A stretch of DNA of 5,784 nt from a virus (taxonomy: Duplodnaviria > Heunggongvirae > Uroviricota > Caudoviricetes), in the IMG/VR virus record IMGVR_UViG_2671180770_000006; one strand, written 5' to 3'. The notes beneath the pieces are model-generated. The model saw only the letters and a list, made by a program, of their open reading frames with translations, made no database searches and had not been told where the DNA came from. A program made the position numbers and the translations under genes. Every line of letters starts with the position of its first letter. The stretch's first letter is position 1. Positions 1-5,784 of this stretch are shown here, one piece after another.

Positions 1-58
1 CAACTGGCTCTCCGGAAACAAGAAAAACTGTCAGAACAAGTGCAAATGCTGTATTCAT
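1..58 (-). CDS. Hypothetical protein, partial (5' end only; gene continues beyond left edge). N-terminus MNTAFALVLTVFLVSGEPV is hydrophobic, signal-peptide or membrane-anchor like
   Basis: Minus-strand ATG at 58..56 overlaps the upstream gene's stop (plus tcat at 55-58 = ATGA on minus), a classic translational-coupling junction. The 19 codons in the window are open and hydrophobic. Not in the ORF track because it is truncated. Confidence 0.4.
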   Translation of the reverse strand, partial: MNTAFALVLTVFLVSGEPV

Positions 59-378
59 TGCCAGCATCCTTTTTGTATCGGACGTAAACGGGCCAACATT
101 GAAAGAATGCATATTTTATTTAATAGCTCCCGTTCGTGTTTTCTCTTGTTAATGGCATCTTCAGTAAATACAGGGTTACTGATAGTGACACCAATTTCAA
201 AACAACCTTCAGACGTATTAACGTTTGGTAATAACGTTTCCATTATCGCGTCCTCAACAATGAATTTTGTGATGCAGTGCCTGGTGCCTCCAGGTGACGT
301 TAACCAGTTAACAATTAACGCCGGATACAGAGCATTCCCGTTACGCCCGTAAAAGACCGCTTGTTTTAACTGTTCCAC
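55..378 (-). CDS. Hypothetical small protein (107 codons from GTG at 378; alternative ATG at 243 with GAGGA 7 nt upstream would give 62 aa)
   Basis: ORF from the six-frame track; the codon at 376-378 is GTG with no obvious SD, whereas the internal ATG at 241-243 has a good SD. Protein-like composition extends to about 378. Stop overlaps the next gene's ATG (ATGA). Confidence 0.5.
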   Translation of the reverse strand: MEQLKQAVFYGRNGNALYPALIVNWLTSPGGTRHCITKFIVEDAIMETLLPNVNTSEGCFEIGVTISNPVFTEDAINKRKHERELLNKICILSMLARLRPIQKGCWQ

Positions 379-810
379 GTGCGCTGAGCCGCATTCACCG
401 CATCACAAAATTCACTTTAAAAAAGGCGGCAGAGCAGTTACGGAGTAAAACTGGTACCGCCAAACGTCACCAGAAAATGGATAACAGAGGGCGTTGCAGC
501 GTGGTTGTCTCTTAAGCGTATGGTCAACCTGACAACCCGGTGTACTCAACGGGGAAGGAATAACCCCGCCATACTTACCGCCGCGCCATTTCGCGGATTG
601 CCACAACCGGAAGCGCACGGTCGACGAAAATTTAACGACAGGCTATCTATGAACCAGCTACCTCGCCGAGCGCTTTCGCGTTATGGTCTGACTTTTCAGG
701 GAAATATCCTTTCAGTAAACTGTCAGTGCCGGATGCTCACCCGTGTCCGGCGCACGCACTCCACCTCACCCGTGGAGAACTCCTTAATCACCAACCCTCA
801 GGAGGGTGAA

Positions 811-1406: not shown

Positions 1407-1625
1407 TTAACGTGGGTATGTAACCATTCTGGCAATGCTTAATGCCGCTGCTTTTTCCAGCCTGGTGATATCCTGCTCCAGAGCGGACAGATTTTCAGCC
1501 TGCTTAGTCCTGGCTTCATTGGCCCATTTCAGATCCTGCGCTGCATTAATTTTCTGGCGCATCCACTCATAAAGTTCATCATCGGTATAGTCTGGCGCGA
1601 TGATGACGGGTTCTCGTTTCTGCAT
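1407..1625 (-). CDS. Hypothetical protein, 72 aa, predicted helical/coiled (MQKREPVIIAPDYTDDELYEWMRQKINAAQDLKW...)
   Basis: ATG at 1625..1623 with GAGGA 6 nt upstream on the minus strand; follows the 42-aa gene after about 30 nt. Confidence 0.6.
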   Translation of the reverse strand: MQKREPVIIAPDYTDDELYEWMRQKINAAQDLKWANEARTKQAENLSALEQDITRLEKAAALSIARMVTYPR

Positions 1626-1654: not shown

Positions 1655-1783
1655 TCAGCCGTTAGATTTTCCCGAACTGGAAAGCGCCTGTTTAAATTCA
1701 CTGAAGCTGAGAGCTTCTTCGCCTTCGGCAAGACCATCGAAGTATTCTTCGTAAGCTTTTTCCATGATTGTGTCGAAATCCAT
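1655..1783 (-). CDS. Hypothetical small acidic protein, 42 aa (MDFDTIMEKAYEEYFDGLAEGEEALSFSEFKQALSSSGKSNG); resembles in size and position the tiny ydaF/ydaG-type ORFs of Rac-like prophages (from memory, unverified)
   Basis: Hand-translated from the minus strand (below the ORF-track length cutoff). ATG at 1783..1781 lies 1 nt after the upstream gene's TGA (GAG TGA T ATG), with AGGTGAG as SD inside the upstream gene's end. Confidence 0.5.
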   Translation of the reverse strand: MDFDTIMEKAYEEYFDGLAEGEEALSFSEFKQALSSSGKSNG

Positions 1784-1784
1784 A

Positions 1785-1940
1785 TCACTCACCTGAGTTT
1801 CTCTCCAGCCAGCGACGGGCACCATTTTCGGTTTTAAACGTTTTGCTTTTGGTATACGTCATCGCGGTGAATGTGCCGTCCTGGTTGGGAAACACGCCGT
1901 ACACCAGAGATTCGTTGTTGCCAAGCTCGATAGTATCCAT
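1785..1940 (-). CDS. Hypothetical small protein, 51 aa (MDTIELGNNESLVYGVFPNQDGTFTAMTYTKSKTFKTENGARRWLERKSGE); first gene of the leftward early operon
   Basis: Hand-translated; ATG at 1940..1938 with GAGGT 4 nt upstream on the minus strand; stop at 1787..1785 is coupled to the next gene. Confidence 0.5.
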   Translation of the reverse strand: MDTIELGNNESLVYGVFPNQDGTFTAMTYTKSKTFKTENGARRWLERNSGE

Positions 1941-2011
1941 GCTGACCTCATTTCCCCTTAACGCCGGGTGGCGGAACTAAAACCTACAGCGCCGTGCTGT
2001 TCTTGATGGGA

Positions 2012-2040
2012 ATATTAGTAACGCGGATATTTTAAGTCAA
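2012..2040 (-). promoter_or_regulatory. PL-like sigma70 early-left promoter (minus strand: TTGACT, 17-nt spacer, TAATAT)
   Basis: -35 TTGACT is the reverse complement of 2035-2040 and -10 TAATAT the reverse complement of 2012-2017, with a 17-nt spacer. It sits upstream of the leftward small-gene operon and its spacer/-10 closely resembles the PR-like promoter. Confidence 0.5.
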
Positions 2041-2193: not shown

Positions 2194-2655
2194 CTACTGG
2201 TTACGTTTCTTTAGTGCCAGCATGTTCTCGAAGGCTTCCTCGTAGAGCTTGTTTAGTCCACGTAGCTGGTTAAGGAGTTTGGCTTTTTCTGACGCAGGTA
2301 GAATCTCGAAGAGGTTAAGTAACTCTGCCTGTTCTTCATTGACCAGCCTCCATCCTTTGCCTGAAAAGTTATCATCATAATTATCTGATGATCTTACATA
2401 ATTCATTAAGTCTTTAAGGTCTTCTCGAATGTCCTCTGGTTTTACCTTTAACAGAGCCGCAAATTTTAGCGCAGCGTCGGTATTTACCGGTATCTTGCCG
2501 TTCAGATACTGGCTAACGGTGCCTTGAGATTCGAATCCCAACAACTCAGCCGCCAGCTCTTGAGTCAGCTTCAGCTCTTTTTTTCTTGCATTCCATGCGG
2601 CTTTTAAATTCTTGCTCGCTTCTGGAGTTGCAATCACTTCGCGTGTTTTTTTCAT
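2194..2655 (-). CDS. racR: Prophage immunity repressor, CI/RacR-like, XRE-type HTH near the N-terminus, 153 aa; no recognisable LexA/S24 autocleavage domain
   Basis: HTH-like segment LTQELAAELLGFESQGTVSQYLNGK; divergent from a Cro-like gene across about 100 bp; terminator immediately downstream; C-terminal half lacks a peptidase-like motif. Symbol given by architecture match to the Rac RacR-YdaS-YdaT module, not by verified identity. Confidence 0.8.
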   Translation of the reverse strand: MKKTREVIATPEASKNLKAAWNARKKELKLTQELAAELLGFESQGTVSQYLNGKIPVNTDAALKFAALLKVKPEDIREDLKDLMNYVRSSDNYDDNFSGKGWRLVNEEQAELLNLFEILPASEKAKLLNQLRGLNKLYEEAFENMLALKKRNQ

Positions 2656-2661
2656 ACATAG

Positions 2662-2689
2662 AGTTTATTTGTTTTACCAATATTATCAA
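2662..2689 (-). promoter_or_regulatory. PRM-like promoter for the repressor (minus strand: TTGATA, 16-nt spacer, TAAACT), predicting a leaderless or near-leaderless repressor mRNA
   Basis: -10 TAAACT ends 6 nt before the repressor ATG and there is no SD upstream of that ATG, analogous to lambda cI transcribed from PRM. Hexamers read from the sequence; the start site is inferred. Confidence 0.4.
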
Positions 2690-2703: not shown

Positions 2704-2732
2704 TTGATCTTTAAAATTAGCGGGGCTAATAT
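2704..2732 (+). promoter_or_regulatory. PR-like sigma70 early-right promoter (TTGATC, 17-nt spacer, TAATAT) with embedded inverted repeat ATTAGC-GGG-GCTAAT (2716-2730)
   Basis: -35 at 2704-2709 and -10 at 2727-2732. The 6-3-6 inverted repeat occupies the spacer and overlaps the -10, a typical operator position. About 30 nt upstream of the Cro-like ATG. Confidence 0.55.
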
Positions 2733-2762: not shown

Positions 2763-3038
2763 ATGAACTTAAGAGACTATTTAAAAGAGAAACATATCAC
2801 CCAGCTACAGTTTGGGAAGCTAACGGGTTTATCTCAGGTGCATGTAAGTCGAGTGCTGGGGGGCTATGAAAGATTCAGCCCTGAAAAAGCATTACGTGTT
2901 GCTGAAGTAACGAATTTCGAGGTTACACCTCATGAACTCCGGCCTGATATTTACCCGAATCCAACCGACGGCTTACCTGTTGGATTCAAGGCTAACACAC
3001 CAAATGCATCGGAGTTGATTCATGAAAATCAGGCATGA
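2763..3038 (+). CDS. ydaS: Cro-like small HTH regulator (YdaS family-like), 91 aa
   Basis: ATG at 2763 with GAAGG 6 nt upstream (the track's 2757 start is a TTG). HTH-like ITQLQFGKLTGLSQVHVSRVLGG and an ELRPD motif; divergent from the repressor. Symbol is by family resemblance. Confidence 0.75.
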   Translation: MNLRDYLKEKHITQLQFGKLTGLSQVHVSRVLGGYERFSPEKALRVAEVTNFEVTPHELRPDIYPNPTDGLPVGFKANTPNASELIHENQA

Positions 3039-3447
3039 GCACATCCGCATGGCGATGAATGCCTGGGCGCGTCCTGATGGCGAAAAAGTTCCAGCAGCTG
3101 GAATAACCCAGGCTTATTTTGAGTTGGGTATGACGTTTCCTGAACTGTATGACGACAGCCATCCGGAAGCCCTGGCTCGCAATACACAGAAAATTTTCCG
3201 CTGGGTAGAGAAAGACACCCCTGATGCAGTTGAAAAAATTCAGGCGTTGTTACCAGCGATCGAAAAAGCAATGCCGCCTCTGCTGGTGGCCCGAATGCGC
3301 AGCCACAGTTCAGCTTATTTTCGGGAGCTGGTGGAGACGCGGGAACGACTGGTGAGAGACGCTGATGATTTTGTCGCAGTGGCGATCGCTGGTTTCAACC
3401 AGATGAATCGTGGTGGCCCGGCGGGAAATATTGTGGTTGTGCATTGA
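3022..3447 (+). CDS. ydaT: YdaT-like protein (reported CII-type functional analogue in Rac/CP-933P-type prophages), 141 aa
   Basis: N-terminus MKIRHEHI and C-terminal ...VVVH match my recollection of YdaT-family proteins; GGAG 7 nt upstream; overlaps the Cro-like stop by 17 nt, consistent with coupling. Assignment is from memory, not a search. Confidence 0.7.
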   Translation: MKIRHEHIRMAMNAWARPDGEKVPAAGITQAYFELGMTFPELYDDSHPEALARNTQKIFRWVEKDTPDAVEKIQALLPAIEKAMPPLLVARMRSHSSAYFRELVETRERLVRDADDFVAVAIAGFNQMNRGGPAGNIVVVH

Positions 3448-3518
3448 CTGACAATATTCATACCGGATCGCTTCCGGCAATTCGTGAGTAAAAAGATTCG
3501 GTATCAGAAGAGGTGAGT

Positions 3519-4559
3519 ATGGCTAATGCCTGGCTCAGATTATGGCATGACATGCCAAATGATCCTAAGTGGCGAACAATTTCCAGGGTGTCAGGACAGC
3601 CAATTGCAACAGTGATGGCGGTGTATATCCACCTTCTGGTGAGCGCGTCACGAAATGTCACGACATGTCACGGCGTGTCACTACGTGGTCACATTGATGT
3701 CACGACGGAAGATTTAGCAAGTGCGCTTGATGTGACGGAAGAAGTAATTGATTCAATTTTACAGGCAATGCAGGGGCGGGTACTTGATGGAGATTTAATC
3801 ACCGGATGGGAAAAACGCCAGGTACTGAAAGAGGACAATGGCAACGTTTCACAAACCGCGAAATCCCCAGCAGAGCGCAAGAGAGCGCAGCGCGAGAGGG
3901 AAAAATTACGAAAACAGAATGAGGGGTGTCACGACGAGTCACGCATATGTCACGACATGTCACGACGAGTCACGACAGATAAAGATACAGATAAAGAATT
4001 AAACCCCACACATAACGCGCACGTGCGCGAGAGTGATCCGACCAGTGAGTCGAGTGGTACGCCGTTGCAGGCAGCAGAACCTGCATCCCTGGATGGACTG
4101 AGCGAACCCATCGGGAAATTTCCGATGGTCGATGGCTGGCATCCGTCGCCGGATTTTCGACGACGGGCTGCGTTGTGGGGGATGGCTTTGCCGGAGCCGG
4201 AATTTACACCTGCTGAACTTGCCGCTTTCCGGGACTACTGGGCAGCGGAGGGGAAAGTTTTCACGCAGGTTCAGTGGGAGCAGAAATTCGCCCGTCACGT
4301 AAATCACGTCAGGGCGCAGGTTAAGCCAGTCAGCAAGGGGGTAAACCATGCAGCAGCACCAGGTGGCACCGCATCACGGGCAGTTCAGGAAATTCGGGCA
4401 GCACGTGAGCAGTGGGAACGTGAAAACGGATTTATCAGCGACGGAAACGGTCTGGAAGCTGTGGGAACTCATGGGGGAGGTTTATTCGAACCGCTGGACC
4501 CAGAAGAACGGGGCCGCACCTTCGAAGCTCTGGATTGCACAGATTGGCGCGATGACTGA
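3519..4559 (+). CDS. Replication initiator (lambda O functional analogue): N-terminal domain, low-complexity charged linker and C-terminal domain; contains the putative origin
   Basis: Sits immediately upstream of a P-like gene; two arrays of GTCAC(GAC) direct repeats plus an AT-rich tract lie inside the ORF, the linker-embedded arrangement known for ori-lambda in gene O. ATG at 3519 with AGAGG 5 nt upstream (track start 3513 is a GTG). The last 212 nt overlap the P-like gene out of frame, so the true C-terminus is uncertain. Confidence 0.65.
   Translation: MANAWLRLWHDMPNDPKWRTISRVSGQPIATVMAVYIHLLVSASRNVTTCHGVSLRGHIDVTTEDLASALDVTEEVIDSILQAMQGRVLDGDLITGWEKRQVLKEDNGNVSQTAKSPAERKRAQREREKLRKQNEGCHDESRICHDMSRRVTTDKDTDKELNPTHNAHVRESDPTSESSGTPLQAAEPASLDGLSEPIGKFPMVDGWHPSPDFRRRAALWGMALPEPEFTPAELAAFRDYWAAEGKVFTQVQWEQKFARHVNHVRAQVKPVSKGVNHAAAPGGTASRAVQEIRAAREQWERENGFISDGNGLEAVGTHGGGLFEPLDPEERGRTFEALDCTDWRDD
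3647..3708 (+). repeat. Iteron-like array 1: six direct repeats of GTCAC(GAC) at 10-11 bp spacing (starts 3647, 3657, 3667, 3677, 3688, 3699)
   Basis: Counted directly. The helical-turn period places the repeats on one DNA face, and the phase drift makes the protein read CHD / SR / VTT in rotating frames. Confidence 0.7.
3928..4003 (+). repeat. Iteron-like array 2: five GTCACGAC-type repeats (starts 3928, 3938, 3949, 3959, 3969) followed by AT-rich GATAAAGATACAGATAAAGAATTAAA (3978-4003); candidate origin core and unwinding element
   Basis: Counted directly. The iterons-then-AT-rich layout parallels ori-lambda; the AT tract itself contains GATAAAGA twice. Confidence 0.65.
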
Positions 4560-5013
4560 GCAGCAAATCCGACAGGTCTGCCGCCAGTGCATGGACCGCT
4601 GCCGGGCGGGTGAAACATGGCCTCCGGACCTGGCTGAGTTTGTGGCACTGATTTCGGAAAGCGGAGCCAATCCATTCGGTCTGACGGTGGATGCTGTGAT
4701 GGAGGAGTACCGCCGCTGGCGCAATGAGTCCTGGCGATATGACGGAAGTGATAAGTACCCGTGGCCTCAGCCTGTGCTGTATCACATTTGCCTTGAGATG
4801 CGTTCAAAGGGGATTGAGCGCCAGATGACCGAAGGGGAATTAAAACGGCTTGCAGAACGGCAGCTGACGAAATGGGCAAAGCATGTTAGTAACGGCCTGA
4901 GCGTTCCGCCAGTCCGGCGACAACTGGCGGCACCCAAACGCCCGTCGGGGCCAACGCCAATTGAGTTGCTAAAACAGGAATATGAACGCCGGAAAGCGGC
5001 TGGGTTTGTTTGA
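4348..5013 (+). CDS. Lambda P-like replication protein (DnaB helicase loader), 221 aa
   Basis: Recalled lambda P motifs align: ...PSPGQFVAW... with PPDLAEFVAL, ESYPWK with DKYPWP, and ELRRKAADELVHMTARI with ELKRLAERQLTKWAKHV. AAGGGGG lies 6 nt upstream of the ATG at 4348. An alternative start at 4471 is possible. Confidence 0.8.
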   Translation: MQQHQVAPHHGQFRKFGQHVSSGNVKTDLSATETVWKLWELMGEVYSNRWTQKNGAAPSKLWIAQIGAMTEQQIRQVCRQCMDRCRAGETWPPDLAEFVALISESGANPFGLTVDAVMEEYRRWRNESWRYDGSDKYPWPQPVLYHICLEMRSKGIERQMTEGELKRLAERQLTKWAKHVSNGLSVPPVRRQLAAPKRPSGPTPIELLKQEYERRKAAGFV

Positions 5014-5045: not shown

Positions 5046-5702
5046 ATGGAGACTGTTTTTGACGCACTGAAAGCGATGGGAAAAGCCACGTTGGTAGAGC
5101 TGGCTGCGCGACTTGATATCAGTCGTGAAGAAGTGCTGAACGAACTATGGGAACTGAAAAACGTTGGTTTCGTTGATAAAAGCGCGTACACCTGGCGTGT
5201 GGCTGATAACAACGTTCAGCAGGAACAGCCAGCGCAGGCAGAACTGCCGGAAGAAACCACCACAGCAACAGTAGCGAAAATCTCAGAGTGCGATTTAACC
5301 GCAACGATTGAACAACGCGGACCACAAACGGCGGATGAACTGGCTACGTTTTTCTGCATCACATCACGCAAAGTGGCTTCAAAGCTGGCAATGGCAATCA
5401 GTAAAGGTCGTCTGATTCGCGTTAATCAGGACGGTAAATTTCGTTACTGCATACCGGGCGCTGATTTACCGGCAGAGCCGGAAGCTGCATCCGTAGCGGA
5501 AACGGATGGTAAAGCCTTTCCTCAGCCAGCAGGTGCTGCGTTACCAGTCCGGGACGCAGCAACACAGGAAGAAATTAAAACAGAAACTGTGGCGGACATT
5601 GTGCAGCCGTTGCCATCGTTTACCGAAACGCAAGCAGATGAGCTGATTTTTCCGTCCCTTCGCAGGGCAAACCTAGCGCTGCGCAGGGGCTTTGTTGAAT
5701 AA
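5046..5702 (+). CDS. Hypothetical protein with two tandem winged-helix-like segments, 218 aa; first gene of the nin-equivalent region after P
   Basis: GGGAGGA 5 nt upstream of the ATG at 5046. Residues about 14-52 and 92-135 both show a helix-turn-helix then beta-hairpin pattern ([39 protein letters not shown] and [43 protein letters not shown]). Confidence 0.65.
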
Positions 5703-5784
5703 ATAAGATTTCGTGCGAACGACCCTGTAGCTGGCTGGATTTTCAGGCAATACGCACGCTTTCTGGCATCCCAGCCTTTGTCAT

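Follow-up and report, generated by a model that had tools for sequence, protein, structure and literature searches.

The window, by which we mean the whole stretch of 5,784 nucleotides that was analysed, is on its gene content the immunity and early region of a lambdoid prophage of the Qin/Rac type. Read rightward, ORF calls and Pfam give the order repressor, cro analogue, cII analogue, O and P. Read leftward, Pfam, Rfam and synteny give ydfA-ydfB-ydfC, the DicF small RNA and dicB. The individual genes are the following.

55-243, minus strand: dicB, cell-division inhibitor gene at the distal end of a PL-type operon (Pfam DicB, 127.4 bits)
424-475, minus strand: DicF small RNA (Rfam RF00039, 70.5 bits against a gathering score of 48, full-length match)
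1407-1625, minus strand: ydfC-like gene (ORF; synteny with ydfC of E. coli 042 and CEA106S)
1655-1783, minus strand: small ydfB-like gene (positioned as ydfB in CEA106S and 042; no Pfam match)
1785-1940, minus strand: ydfA/ydaF-like DUF1391 gene, first in the leftward operon (Pfam DUF1391, 96.4 bits)
2194-2655, minus strand: CI-analogue repressor gene, 153 aa (Pfam HTH_3 only, residues 23-75)
2763-3038, plus strand: ydaS-like gene, Cro analogue, 91 aa (ATG ORF; Pfam, PHROG and BLASTP matches)
3022-3447, plus strand: ydaT, CII analogue, 141 aa (Pfam, PHROG and PDB matches)
3513-4559, plus strand: replication initiator gene, O analogue, with a DnaT-like domain (Pfam DnaT, 63 bits)
4552-5013, plus strand: replication protein P homologue (Pfam Phage_lambda_P, 58 bits; start as annotated in 042 and CEA106S)

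The preliminary description of this DNA had seen a pair of overlapping Cro-like and YdaT-like genes facing a divergent helix-turn-helix (HTH) repressor, and the ORFs bear this out. The repressor gene and the ydaS-like gene diverge across 107 bp, and the two downstream ORFs have 17 nt in common (3022-3038). The description had also likened the arrangement, overlap included, to the RacR-YdaS-YdaT system of the K-12 prophage Rac. This comparison stands for the gene order and for the homology of the two downstream proteins. It does not stand for the repressor: a RacR-type identity is ruled out (BLASTP E 26, no meaningful alignment, different HTH Pfam matches). Nor is the overlap a Rac feature, since Rac ydaS and ydaT are instead separated by a gap of 22 nt. 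The same 17-nt overlap does occur in a paaR-type locus of O157, in E. coli 042 and between dicC and ydfX of the K-12 prophage Qin.

Annotated relatives have an equivalent gene layout; among them is the phage record Tritos, which labels these genes CI and Cro. The ydaT homologue is called 'activator protein cII' in the records vB_EcoS-689R5, -813R8 and -640R1. In the RefSeq annotation of E. coli 042 and CEA106S the equivalent genes appear as 'YdaS family helix-turn-helix protein' and 'toxin YdaT family protein'.

The ydaS-like gene has the Shine-Dalgarno sequence AGAAGG (2750-2755). Its product gives a borderline match to Pfam YdaS_toxin (PF15943, 30.9 bits against a cut-off of 30), also matches HTH_3, and matches PHROG 35 with an E value of 2e-25. 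BLASTP aligns it with Rac YdaS of K-12 at 32% identity over 50 aa (E 5e-7), ELRPDI included, and the conserved YdaS motif EV..(H/E)ELRPD is present in the alignment. It is 49% identical to the O157 paralogue, and its match to CP-933P YdaS is weak (E 0.005 to PDB 8C7K, an entry that we took to be CP-933P YdaS from the primer F-YdaS-EcoRI). The sequence is identical to RefSeq WP_001053425.1 (YdaS family), as carried by 042 and CEA106S. We assign the 91-aa protein to the YdaS family.

YdaT matches Pfam YdaT_toxin (PF06254) with 39.6 bits against a cut-off of 21, and PHROG 163, 'CII-like transcriptional activator', with an E value of 8e-45; no NCBIfam model matched it. Its match to PDB 3C4R (E 1e-88) corresponds to about 95% identity. 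For CP-933P YdaT (PDB 8BT1, E 1e-78) the identity is 84%, a figure that refers to the published CP-933P construct sequence. Rac YdaT of K-12 is 33% identical over the full length (BLASTP, E 3e-16). With Pfam scores above the cut-offs and BLASTP matches to both Rac proteins, the proposed homology of the downstream pair with ydaS and ydaT has held on alignment. The YdaT family has a recognition-helix arginine followed by a tryptophan, the arginine being R60 in CP-933P (PMC9986795) and R57 in Rac (PMC11879457). Both residues are present in helix alpha3 of the window's protein, as R60 and W61 (...QKIFRWVEK...). Residues 97-128, the C-terminal alpha6 tetramerisation helix, align without gaps with 8BT1 and 3C4R. 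On these alignments YdaT is a POU-like HTH domain followed by a tetramerisation helix, and is predicted to form a tetramer. The dN/dS ratio of ydaT is 0.05-0.16; the gene is under purifying selection. The earlier suggestion that YdaT is a CII-type analogue finds support in PHROG 163 and in the characterised relatives.

The N-terminal HTH of the repressor resembles the N-terminal domain of lambda cI (PDB match, E 2.6e-4). The NCBIfam DicA model (NF007257) aligns with residues 18-152 at 35.1 bits, against a cut-off of 101, and the C-terminus is 38% identical to that of DicA. Identity to the PaaR-type repressor of O157 is 24% over 108 aa. A C-terminal ELLxLFxxLPxxE motif is common to all three proteins in the alignments. 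The repressor is of the short DicA/PaaR type by sequence, with the architecture of DicA, and falls outside the DicA subfamily. Only about 75 residues follow the HTH, Pfam gave no Peptidase_S24 match at E <= 0.01, and the translation contains neither an AG nor a CG dipeptide. As had been proposed, the repressor is predicted to be non-cleavable, that is, not of the self-cleaving LexA/lambda-CI type.

The control regions around the repressor gene and the junction of the pair contain the following candidate sites.

2011-2040, minus strand: candidate PL, TTGACT (2040-2035), spacing 17, TAATAT (2017-2012) (promoter scan, 9/12)
2099-2109: second operator-like 11-mer, AATATTAGTTA, left control region (from the motif count; putative function)
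2136-2169: perfect 14-bp hairpin, ACAAAAAAACCGAC/GTCGGTTTTTTTGT, with a 6-nt loop (inverted repeat, 100% complementary)
2662-2689, minus strand: candidate PRM, TTGATA (2689-2684), spacing 16, TAAACT (2667-2662) (promoter scan)
2704-2732, plus strand: candidate PR, TTGATC (2704-2709), spacing 17, TAATAT (2727-2732) (found by eye, below the scan threshold)
3015-3032: YdaT box, TTGATTCATGAAAATCAG, OM-type operator (match to the published operator)

The operator-like 11-mer occurs in seven copies where 1.15 are expected, and four of these lie inside the two control regions. The -10 hexamer of the candidate PL sits within one of them, AATATTAGTAA (2011-2021). Downstream of AATATTAGTTA the scan gives another candidate for a leftward promoter, TTTACA (2081), spacing 18, TATCAT (2052). 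On the right, the candidate PR lies in GCTAATATTTGC, and its -10 hexamer is identical to that of the candidate PL; the scan itself offers an alternative PR, AAGACA (2689), spacing 17, TAAAAT (2717). The candidate PRM overlaps the pseudo-palindrome TTACCAATATTATCAA (2674-2689). The transcription start predicted from it is the A of the repressor ATG (2655), upstream of which the sequence contains no Shine-Dalgarno motif. The repressor mRNA is probably leaderless, by analogy with the leaderless paaR2 and cI messages (PMC8630535). The hairpin at 2136-2169 is likely to be a bidirectional intrinsic terminator that closes the repressor transcript. The operators, PR, PRM, PL and the reverse promoter discussed below are all sequence predictions. 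This immunity type, in which a DicA-like repressor is combined with AATATTAGTAA-type operators, has itself not been characterised so far.

The YdaT box can be compared with experimental work on relatives. The tetrameric YdaT of CP-933P footprints TTGATT-N6-AATCAA at the ydaS/ydaT junction (PMC9986795) and activates the promoter PRE933P (PMC8630535, PMC9986795). Rac YdaT binds ATGATTCATGAAAATCAA, as footprinted, and stimulates a reverse promoter of racR by as much as 29-fold (PMC11879457). The window's box differs from the CP-933P operator by one mismatch, at the outermost position. It spans the ydaT start codon within the 3' end of ydaS, and Rac, the O157 paralogue and phage Tritos have a near-identical sequence at the same position. 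Within ydaS the promoter scan found a single weak reverse-promoter candidate (2818-2791, 8/12). There is also a weak minus-strand promoter match near the 3' end of ydaT (3454-3427). An antisense RNA like lambda oop, which we looked for at this 3' end, was rejected: the structure z-score is -0.18, with no stable structure and no Rfam match, and the window holds no counterpart of oop by these two measures.

Leftward of the repressor, the dicB product is 89% identical to K-12 DicB, and the gene is annotated as dicB in CEA106S. DicF is an antisense regulator of ftsZ. [quoted passage not shown] In K-12, DicA represses dicBp and the antirepressor Rem relieves this repression (PMC10448788). We identified no antirepressor, and what CEA106S carries at the rem position is a gene without relationship to Rem. 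Rightward of the pair, the O analogue contains TGTCACGAC iterons in two clusters, at 3656-3706 and 3927-3976, with nine matches to the motif against 0.98 expected.

We conclude that the pair very probably consists of a Cro analogue (2763-3038) and a CII analogue (3022-3447) that belong to the immunity switch of a Qin/Rac-type lambdoid prophage. This reading builds on the gene content, the homologies, the conservation of the box and the purifying selection on ydaT that we observed. By analogy with characterised relatives, the DNA binding, the promoter positions and the direction of regulation would be as follows. The repressor would bind AATATTAGTAA-like operators at two places, over the rightward promoter within the 107 bp between the divergent genes and over a leftward promoter upstream of ydfA. 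It would thereby silence both early operons and autoregulate its own transcript. With neither a peptidase domain nor an Ala-Gly bond in the repressor, release would not proceed by RecA-stimulated self-cleavage but by an antirepressor or by loss of repressor stability, as has been shown for DicA. Once repression lapses, the YdaS-like protein would be made, then YdaT, then O and P. The YdaS-like protein would act as a Cro-type counter-repressor at the repressor's operators. YdaT would occupy the TTGATT-N6-AATCAG box, which straddles the start codon of its own gene, and would switch on a weak promoter from which leftward transcription runs back into the repressor gene. Such back-transcription would follow the logic of lambda PRE and favour the re-establishment of repression. 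Any lethality on repressor loss would then arise incidentally from de-repression of the early region as a whole, with dicB, DicF, replication from the integrated origin and possibly the overproduced regulators as its sources, and not from a dedicated toxin function of the pair.

A similar system is that of CP-933P (Sp12) in E. coli O157:H7, PaaR2-YdaS-YdaT (PMC8630535, PMC9986795; PDB 8BT1, 8C7K/8CO2). Here too, a short repressor without a peptidase domain diverges from a cro analogue and ydaT, a TTGATT-N6-AATCA(A/G) box lies at the ydaS/ydaT junction, and the repressor mRNA is probably leaderless. CP-933P differs in having the paaA-parE toxin-antitoxin genes after the repressor, where the window has a terminator and then the ydfA operon. 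The paralogous paaR-paaA-parE locus of O157:H7 combines the 17-nt overlap with a C-terminal YdaS-like tail that is nearly identical to the window's. We rejected this locus as CP-933P itself: its repressor begins with MMSALE instead of MQKKE, and its YdaT is not identical to that of 8BT1. The HTH part of its cro analogue differs from the window's, which indicates a different immunity specificity, and the repressors of the two loci diverge as noted above.

Rac is like the window in gene order, in its YdaS and YdaT families and in the box over the ydaT start (PMC5700373, PMC5700377, PMC11879457). It also has a DUF1391 gene to the left of the repressor and replication genes to the right. These, however, are ydaU and ydaV and not of the O/P type. 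Qin (DicA-DicC(-YdfX)) shares the complete leftward operon ydfA-ydfB-ydfC-DicF-dicB with the window (PMC10448788). DicA shares the architecture and the C-terminal motif with the window's repressor, and both lack Ala-Gly, although the repressor remains far below the cut-off of the DicA subfamily. DicC is unrelated to the window's YdaS-like protein. YdfX is a YdaT relative truncated to 96 aa (38% identity over 95 aa), whereas the window's YdaT is full length. With lambda CI-Cro-CII the window has the circuit logic, the gene positions and a P-type replication gene in common, and the N-terminal domain of its repressor resembles that of lambda cI. Lambda CI, however, has an S24 self-cleavage domain, and lambda CII is structurally unrelated to YdaT in its overall fold, YdaT binding an inverted and not a direct repeat (PMC9986795).

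One could also argue, as the preliminary description did, that the genes form a toxic module that addicts the host to the repressor. The YdaS-like protein, YdaT or both would then be the lethal effectors on repressor loss, and the three genes together an addiction cassette that stabilises the prophage. A harmful effect of the window's pair is possible, because Rac YdaS and YdaT, which belong to the same families, are toxic when expressed. The earlier account of Rac is accurate (PMC5700373, PMC5700377, PMC11879457). In Rac, racR is essential: when it is silenced, ydaS-ydaT are de-repressed and viability is lost (PMC5700373, PMC5700377). Expression of Rac YdaT lowers CFU by four orders of magnitude, also when the host lacks rac (PMC11879457), and prolonged overexpression of CP-933P YdaS and PaaR2 leads to growth defects (PMC8630535). 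Nevertheless, we consider the addiction cassette unlikely. Rac YdaT is the distant relative here, at only 33% identity. For the nearest tested homologue, CP-933P YdaT, no toxic effect was detected (PMC8630535), and it does not switch on the rcsA promoter of the host, the target by way of which Rac YdaT is reported to act (PMC11879457). Overexpressed lambda CII is toxic too, yet it is not considered a toxin (PMC5917428). Furthermore, dicB and DicF, established division inhibitors, are sufficient to make DicA essential in Qin of K-12 (PMC10448788, PMC11481867), and the window has both under the same presumed repressor. If loss of the repressor is lethal, dicB and DicF are more likely to be the cause than YdaS and YdaT. 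It is plausible that the host depends on the repressor; this would be a generic property of prophages and not one of the gene pair.

Less probable still are two further claims: that the YdaS-like protein and YdaT, and not dicB, DicF or the replication genes, are the main lethal determinant, in a self-contained cassette that preserves an IS-damaged prophage; or that YdaT makes use of a second box. The sequence at 5412-5429 is such a box-like palindrome, CTGATT-N6-AATCAG, and is conserved in Rac ydaW and in CEA106S. YdaT might use it for looping or for a PaQ-like antisense promoter. We do not claim it as a YdaT site because coding conservation explains the palindrome: it encodes a conserved LIRVNQ motif, and alleles with LARVNQ do not have it.

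Could the prophage instead be decaying and the pair an inert leftover that no longer regulates anything? This copy of the prophage is damaged by an IS5-family element, which disrupts the DUF1627 gene some 2.2 kb downstream, and the related prophage of CEA106S has pseudogenes in its lysis region. However, all three regulator ORFs are intact, as are the YdaT box and the control-region motifs, and the dN/dS of ydaT speaks of selection. The cryptic prophages Rac, Qin and CP-933P keep working switches (PMC8630535, PMC10448788, PMC11879457). We therefore think decay to inertness very improbable. We give almost no credence to a type II toxin-antitoxin pair. It might be suggested by the Pfam names 'YdaS_toxin' and 'YdaT_toxin', by the small, adjacent, overlapping genes and by a weak similarity between the YdaS-like protein and the HigA-type HTH (NCBIfam, 18.8 bits, below the cut-off of 47.7). 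Against it, both proteins are DNA-binding regulators, YdaT being a POU-like HTH protein that forms tetramers and has a defined operator (PMC9986795). Experiments saw no toxin-antitoxin behaviour (Christensen-Dalsgaard 2010, as cited in PMC5917428; PMC8630535), and the two genes stand in the places of cro and cII, between repressor and replication genes, in phage genome records as well. YdaS and YdaT have themselves been argued to be Cro and CII analogues and neither a toxin nor a toxin-antitoxin pair (PMC5917428, PMC8630535).

The Cro/CII pair has been annotated and studied in close relatives, and its members are ordinary lambda-type switch regulators. The importance of the locus goes little beyond correct annotation. 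The Pfam family names invite a toxin reading, while the evidence points to Cro and CII analogues in a switch that is common among E. coli prophages. If the repressor were deleted, we would expect filamentation from dicB and DicF, and not necessarily from YdaS or YdaT. Among 5426 complete E. coli genomes, 3070 have ydaT and 138 have the window's type of repressor plus cro. A widespread ydaT next to a rare repressor-plus-cro type is the usual mosaic pattern of immunity modules.

The arrangement described for 2763-3447, two overlapping genes downstream of a divergent repressor gene, is confirmed by ORF calls and Pfam, and its interpretation as a Rac-type toxic or addiction module is partly supported. 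The most probable function of the pair is that of Cro and CII analogues.

Features of the window, from left to right
55-243, minus: dicB (Pfam 127 bits; 89% identity to K-12 DicB)
424-475, minus: DicF sRNA (Rfam 70.5 bits)
811-1086, plus, and 1064-1384, minus: two convergent, overlapping ORFs between ydfC and DicF
1407-1625: ydfC-like gene, left of the repressor
Left of the repressor: ydfB-like gene
1785-1940: ydfA-like DUF1391 gene, left of the repressor
2011-2021 and 2099-2109: AATATTAGTAA-like 11-mers upstream of ydfA
2040-2012 and 2081-2052, minus: promoter-like sites (promoter scan)
2136-2169: perfect 14-bp hairpin left of the repressor, likely a bidirectional terminator
2194-2655, minus: divergent repressor ORF, 153 aa, 107 bp upstream of the pair
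2674-2684 and 2679-2689: AATATTAGTAA-like 11-mers forming the pseudo-palindrome TTACCAATATTATCAA between repressor and ydaS
2689 to 2662, minus: candidate repressor promoter TTGATA(2689)-16-TAAACT(2662) (promoter scan)
2689-2717: alternative candidate rightward promoter AAGACA-17-TAAAAT (promoter scan)
2704-2732: candidate rightward promoter TTGATC-17-TAATAT, read by eye; its -10 hexamer is also that of the predicted leftward promoter upstream of ydfA
2725-2736: a further GCTAATATTTGC
2763-3038, plus: YdaS-like ORF, ATG start, 91 aa
3022-3447, plus: YdaT ORF, ATG start, 141 aa
Right of ydaT: O-type initiator gene with a DnaT-like domain and two TGTCACGAC iteron clusters
Right of ydaT: lambda P homologue
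5046-5702: DUF1627 gene, cut short by an IS5-family terminus

The 91-aa protein narrowly passes the Pfam cut-off for YdaS_toxin (30.9 bits against 30) and also matches HTH_3, while the 141-aa protein matches YdaT_toxin at 39.6 bits (cut-off 21). Their proposed relationship to YdaS and YdaT holds, since both can be aligned with the K-12 Rac proteins, the YdaS-like protein across 50 residues (32% identity, E 5e-7) and YdaT along its entire length (33% identity, E 3e-16). RefSeq WP_001053425.1, which has the name 'YdaS family helix-turn-helix protein', is the same sequence as the YdaS-like protein. The latter also weakly matches PDB 8C7K/8CO2, which is the CP-933P YdaS starting MTLKEFIKS (primer table of PMC8630535). 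The 17-nt overlap of the two ORFs (3022-3038), which had been taken as Rac-type, is real, but in Rac itself ydaS and ydaT lie 22 nt apart. The same overlap is shared with the O157:H7 paaR-type locus (a paralogue of CP-933P), with E. coli 042 and with dicC-ydfX in K-12 Qin. Because K-12 YdfX (96 aa; minus strand, 4347-4637 of the Qin locus L005) is a truncated YdaT homologue (38% over 95 aa) that overlaps dicC in the same way, Qin formerly had this cro/cII-type pair too.

The repressor is not of the Rac type, as had been proposed: similarity to RacR is not detectable (E 26). Judged by its sequence, its family is DicA/PaaR-like. Its sole Pfam match is HTH_3 at residues 23-75, and the lambda cI N-terminal domain resembles its N-terminal part (E 2.6e-4). 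The NCBIfam DicA model spans residues 18-152 at 35 bits, below the cut-off of 101. The C-terminus carries an ELLxLFxxLPxxE motif, which alignment also finds in DicA (38% over 42 aa of the C-terminus), in the O157 PaaR-type repressor (24% over 108 aa) and in the 'CI repressor' of phage Tritos. 'Non-cleavable' is a fair label, since there is no Pfam match to an S24 peptidase, only about 75 residues follow the HTH, and the sequence contains no Ala-Gly or Cys-Gly dipeptide. DicA has no Ala-Gly bond either; its repression is lifted by Rem, an antirepressor, and by heat and urea (PMC10448788).

AATATTAGTAA-like 11-mers with at most two mismatches occur seven times in the window against 1.15 expected, a count reached in 0 of 200 shuffles, and the two control regions hold four of the seven. 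The minus-strand candidate promoter would place its start near 2655, on the A of the repressor ATG, and no Shine-Dalgarno sequence lies upstream of that ATG, which suggests that the repressor mRNA may be leaderless. The lambda cI mRNA is known to be leaderless. The same has been shown for paaR2 (PMC8630535).

A CII-analogue role for YdaT is supported. YdaT matches the solved structures PDB 3C4R (E 1e-88; about 95% identity by count) and 8BT1 (E 1e-78), is 84% identical (117/140) to the published CP-933P YdaT construct, and keeps the recognition-helix residues R60 and W61. PHROGs places it among 'CII-like transcriptional activator' proteins (E 8e-45), and homologues in phages vB_EcoS-689R5, -813R8, -640R1 and vB_EcoM-606R7 are labelled 'activator protein cII'. 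In CP-933P, PaaR2 plays the part of CI, YdaS that of Cro and YdaT that of CII, with YdaT activating PRE933P, a leftward promoter (PMC8630535). YdaT combines a POU-like HTH domain with a C-terminal helix that tetramerises as a four-helix bundle, and its footprint is a 5'-TTGATT-N6-AATCAA-3' repeat (OM) where ydaS ends (PMC9986795). In Rac, YdaT binds ATGATTCATGAAAATCAA across the start codon of its own gene; it also switches on, by up to 29-fold, a reverse promoter located within ydaS that drives racR (PMC11879457). The module is already known and annotated, with solved structures of near-identical proteins.

In the window, TTGATTCATGAAAATCAG at 3015-3032 differs from the YdaT operator only at the outermost base, because residue 4 of YdaT has an Arg codon instead of Lys. 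It can be aligned with the boxes of Rac, the O157 paralogue and Tritos. The sole reverse-promoter candidate, TTCCCA-16-TATGTT at 2818-2791, is weak; about 208 bp separate it from the box, and the Rac distance is about 190 bp. Box-like sites with at most two mismatches number three against 0.46 expected. A second box-like site, the perfect palindrome CTGATTcgcgttAATCAG, is found within the DUF1627 gene (5412-5429), in Rac ydaW (8119-8136 of the Rac locus L002) and in CEA106S (17407-17424 of locus L006). Since this palindrome encodes LIRVNQ and is missing from LARVNQ alleles, conservation of the coding sequence may account for it.

Of 5426 complete E. coli genomes, 3070 match the ydaT portion of the query and 138 have the full pair along with this repressor. 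In most genomes homology begins at query positions 246-255, that is 3008-3017 of the window, right at the YdaT box. Compared with 042 and CEA106S, the repressor and ydaS show no synonymous differences whereas ydaT has a dS of 0.15-0.17, which places a recombination junction at the box; 3008-3017 is a recombination hotspot. ydaT is under purifying selection (dN/dS 0.05-0.16). The pattern is the mosaicism usual in lambdoid immunity regions, in which a conserved CII-type cassette brings its own site and is combined with repressor/cro specificities that can be exchanged.

One could also argue that the pair itself is lethal once the repressor is lost, as in Rac, and this is partly supported. The preliminary description summarised the Rac literature correctly: racR is essential, and silencing it de-represses ydaS-ydaT (PMC5700373, PMC5700377). 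Rac YdaT causes killing and filamentation, partly by activating host rcsA (PMC11879457). However, CP-933P YdaT, a close relative of the window protein, showed no toxic effect, growth defects appearing only with prolonged overexpression of PaaR2 and YdaS (PMC8630535), and it cannot switch on the rcsA promoter, even though the box of Rac YdaT does respond to it (PMC11879457). Jobling (PMC5917428) and Jurenas et al. have argued that YdaS/YdaT are regulators rather than toxins, lambda CII being toxic too when overexpressed. Prophage repressors, dicA included, often score as essential (PMC11481867), and both dicB and DicF are in the window. Together these points speak against carrying the Rac findings over to the window. 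Host dependence on the repressor is plausible, the likely effectors being dicB and DicF and perhaps replication from the integrated origin.

The leftward genes are the dicBF operon of Qin-type prophages, and its known division inhibitors DicB and DicF are the obvious toxic cargo, most likely under repressor control. The ORFs 811-1086 and 1064-1384 have no Pfam matches; relatives list both as hypothetical proteins, and K-12 Qin lacks them at the corresponding position. Among complete genomes the nearest is CEA106S, 98.1% identical across 98% of the window, where the region belongs to a prophage inserted beside potC. In that prophage, genes for integrase, excisionase and exonuclease lie beyond dicB. 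To the right, TGTCACGAC repeats (nine matches against 0.98 expected) form two clusters of four in the O-like gene (3656-3706 and 3927-3976) and are probably origin iterons. The IS5-family terminus at the window end (about 5679-5784) leaves a DUF1627 product of 218 aa, shorter than in relatives (250-257 aa), so this prophage copy is damaged downstream of its replication genes. The spacer that separates ydaT from the O-like gene holds a small hairpin, CCGGA-TCGCT-TCCGG (3463-3477), which lies within the outer inverted repeat ATACCGGATC/GATTCGGTAT (3460-3469 and 3495-3504), and the region 3460-3504 is conserved in Tritos.
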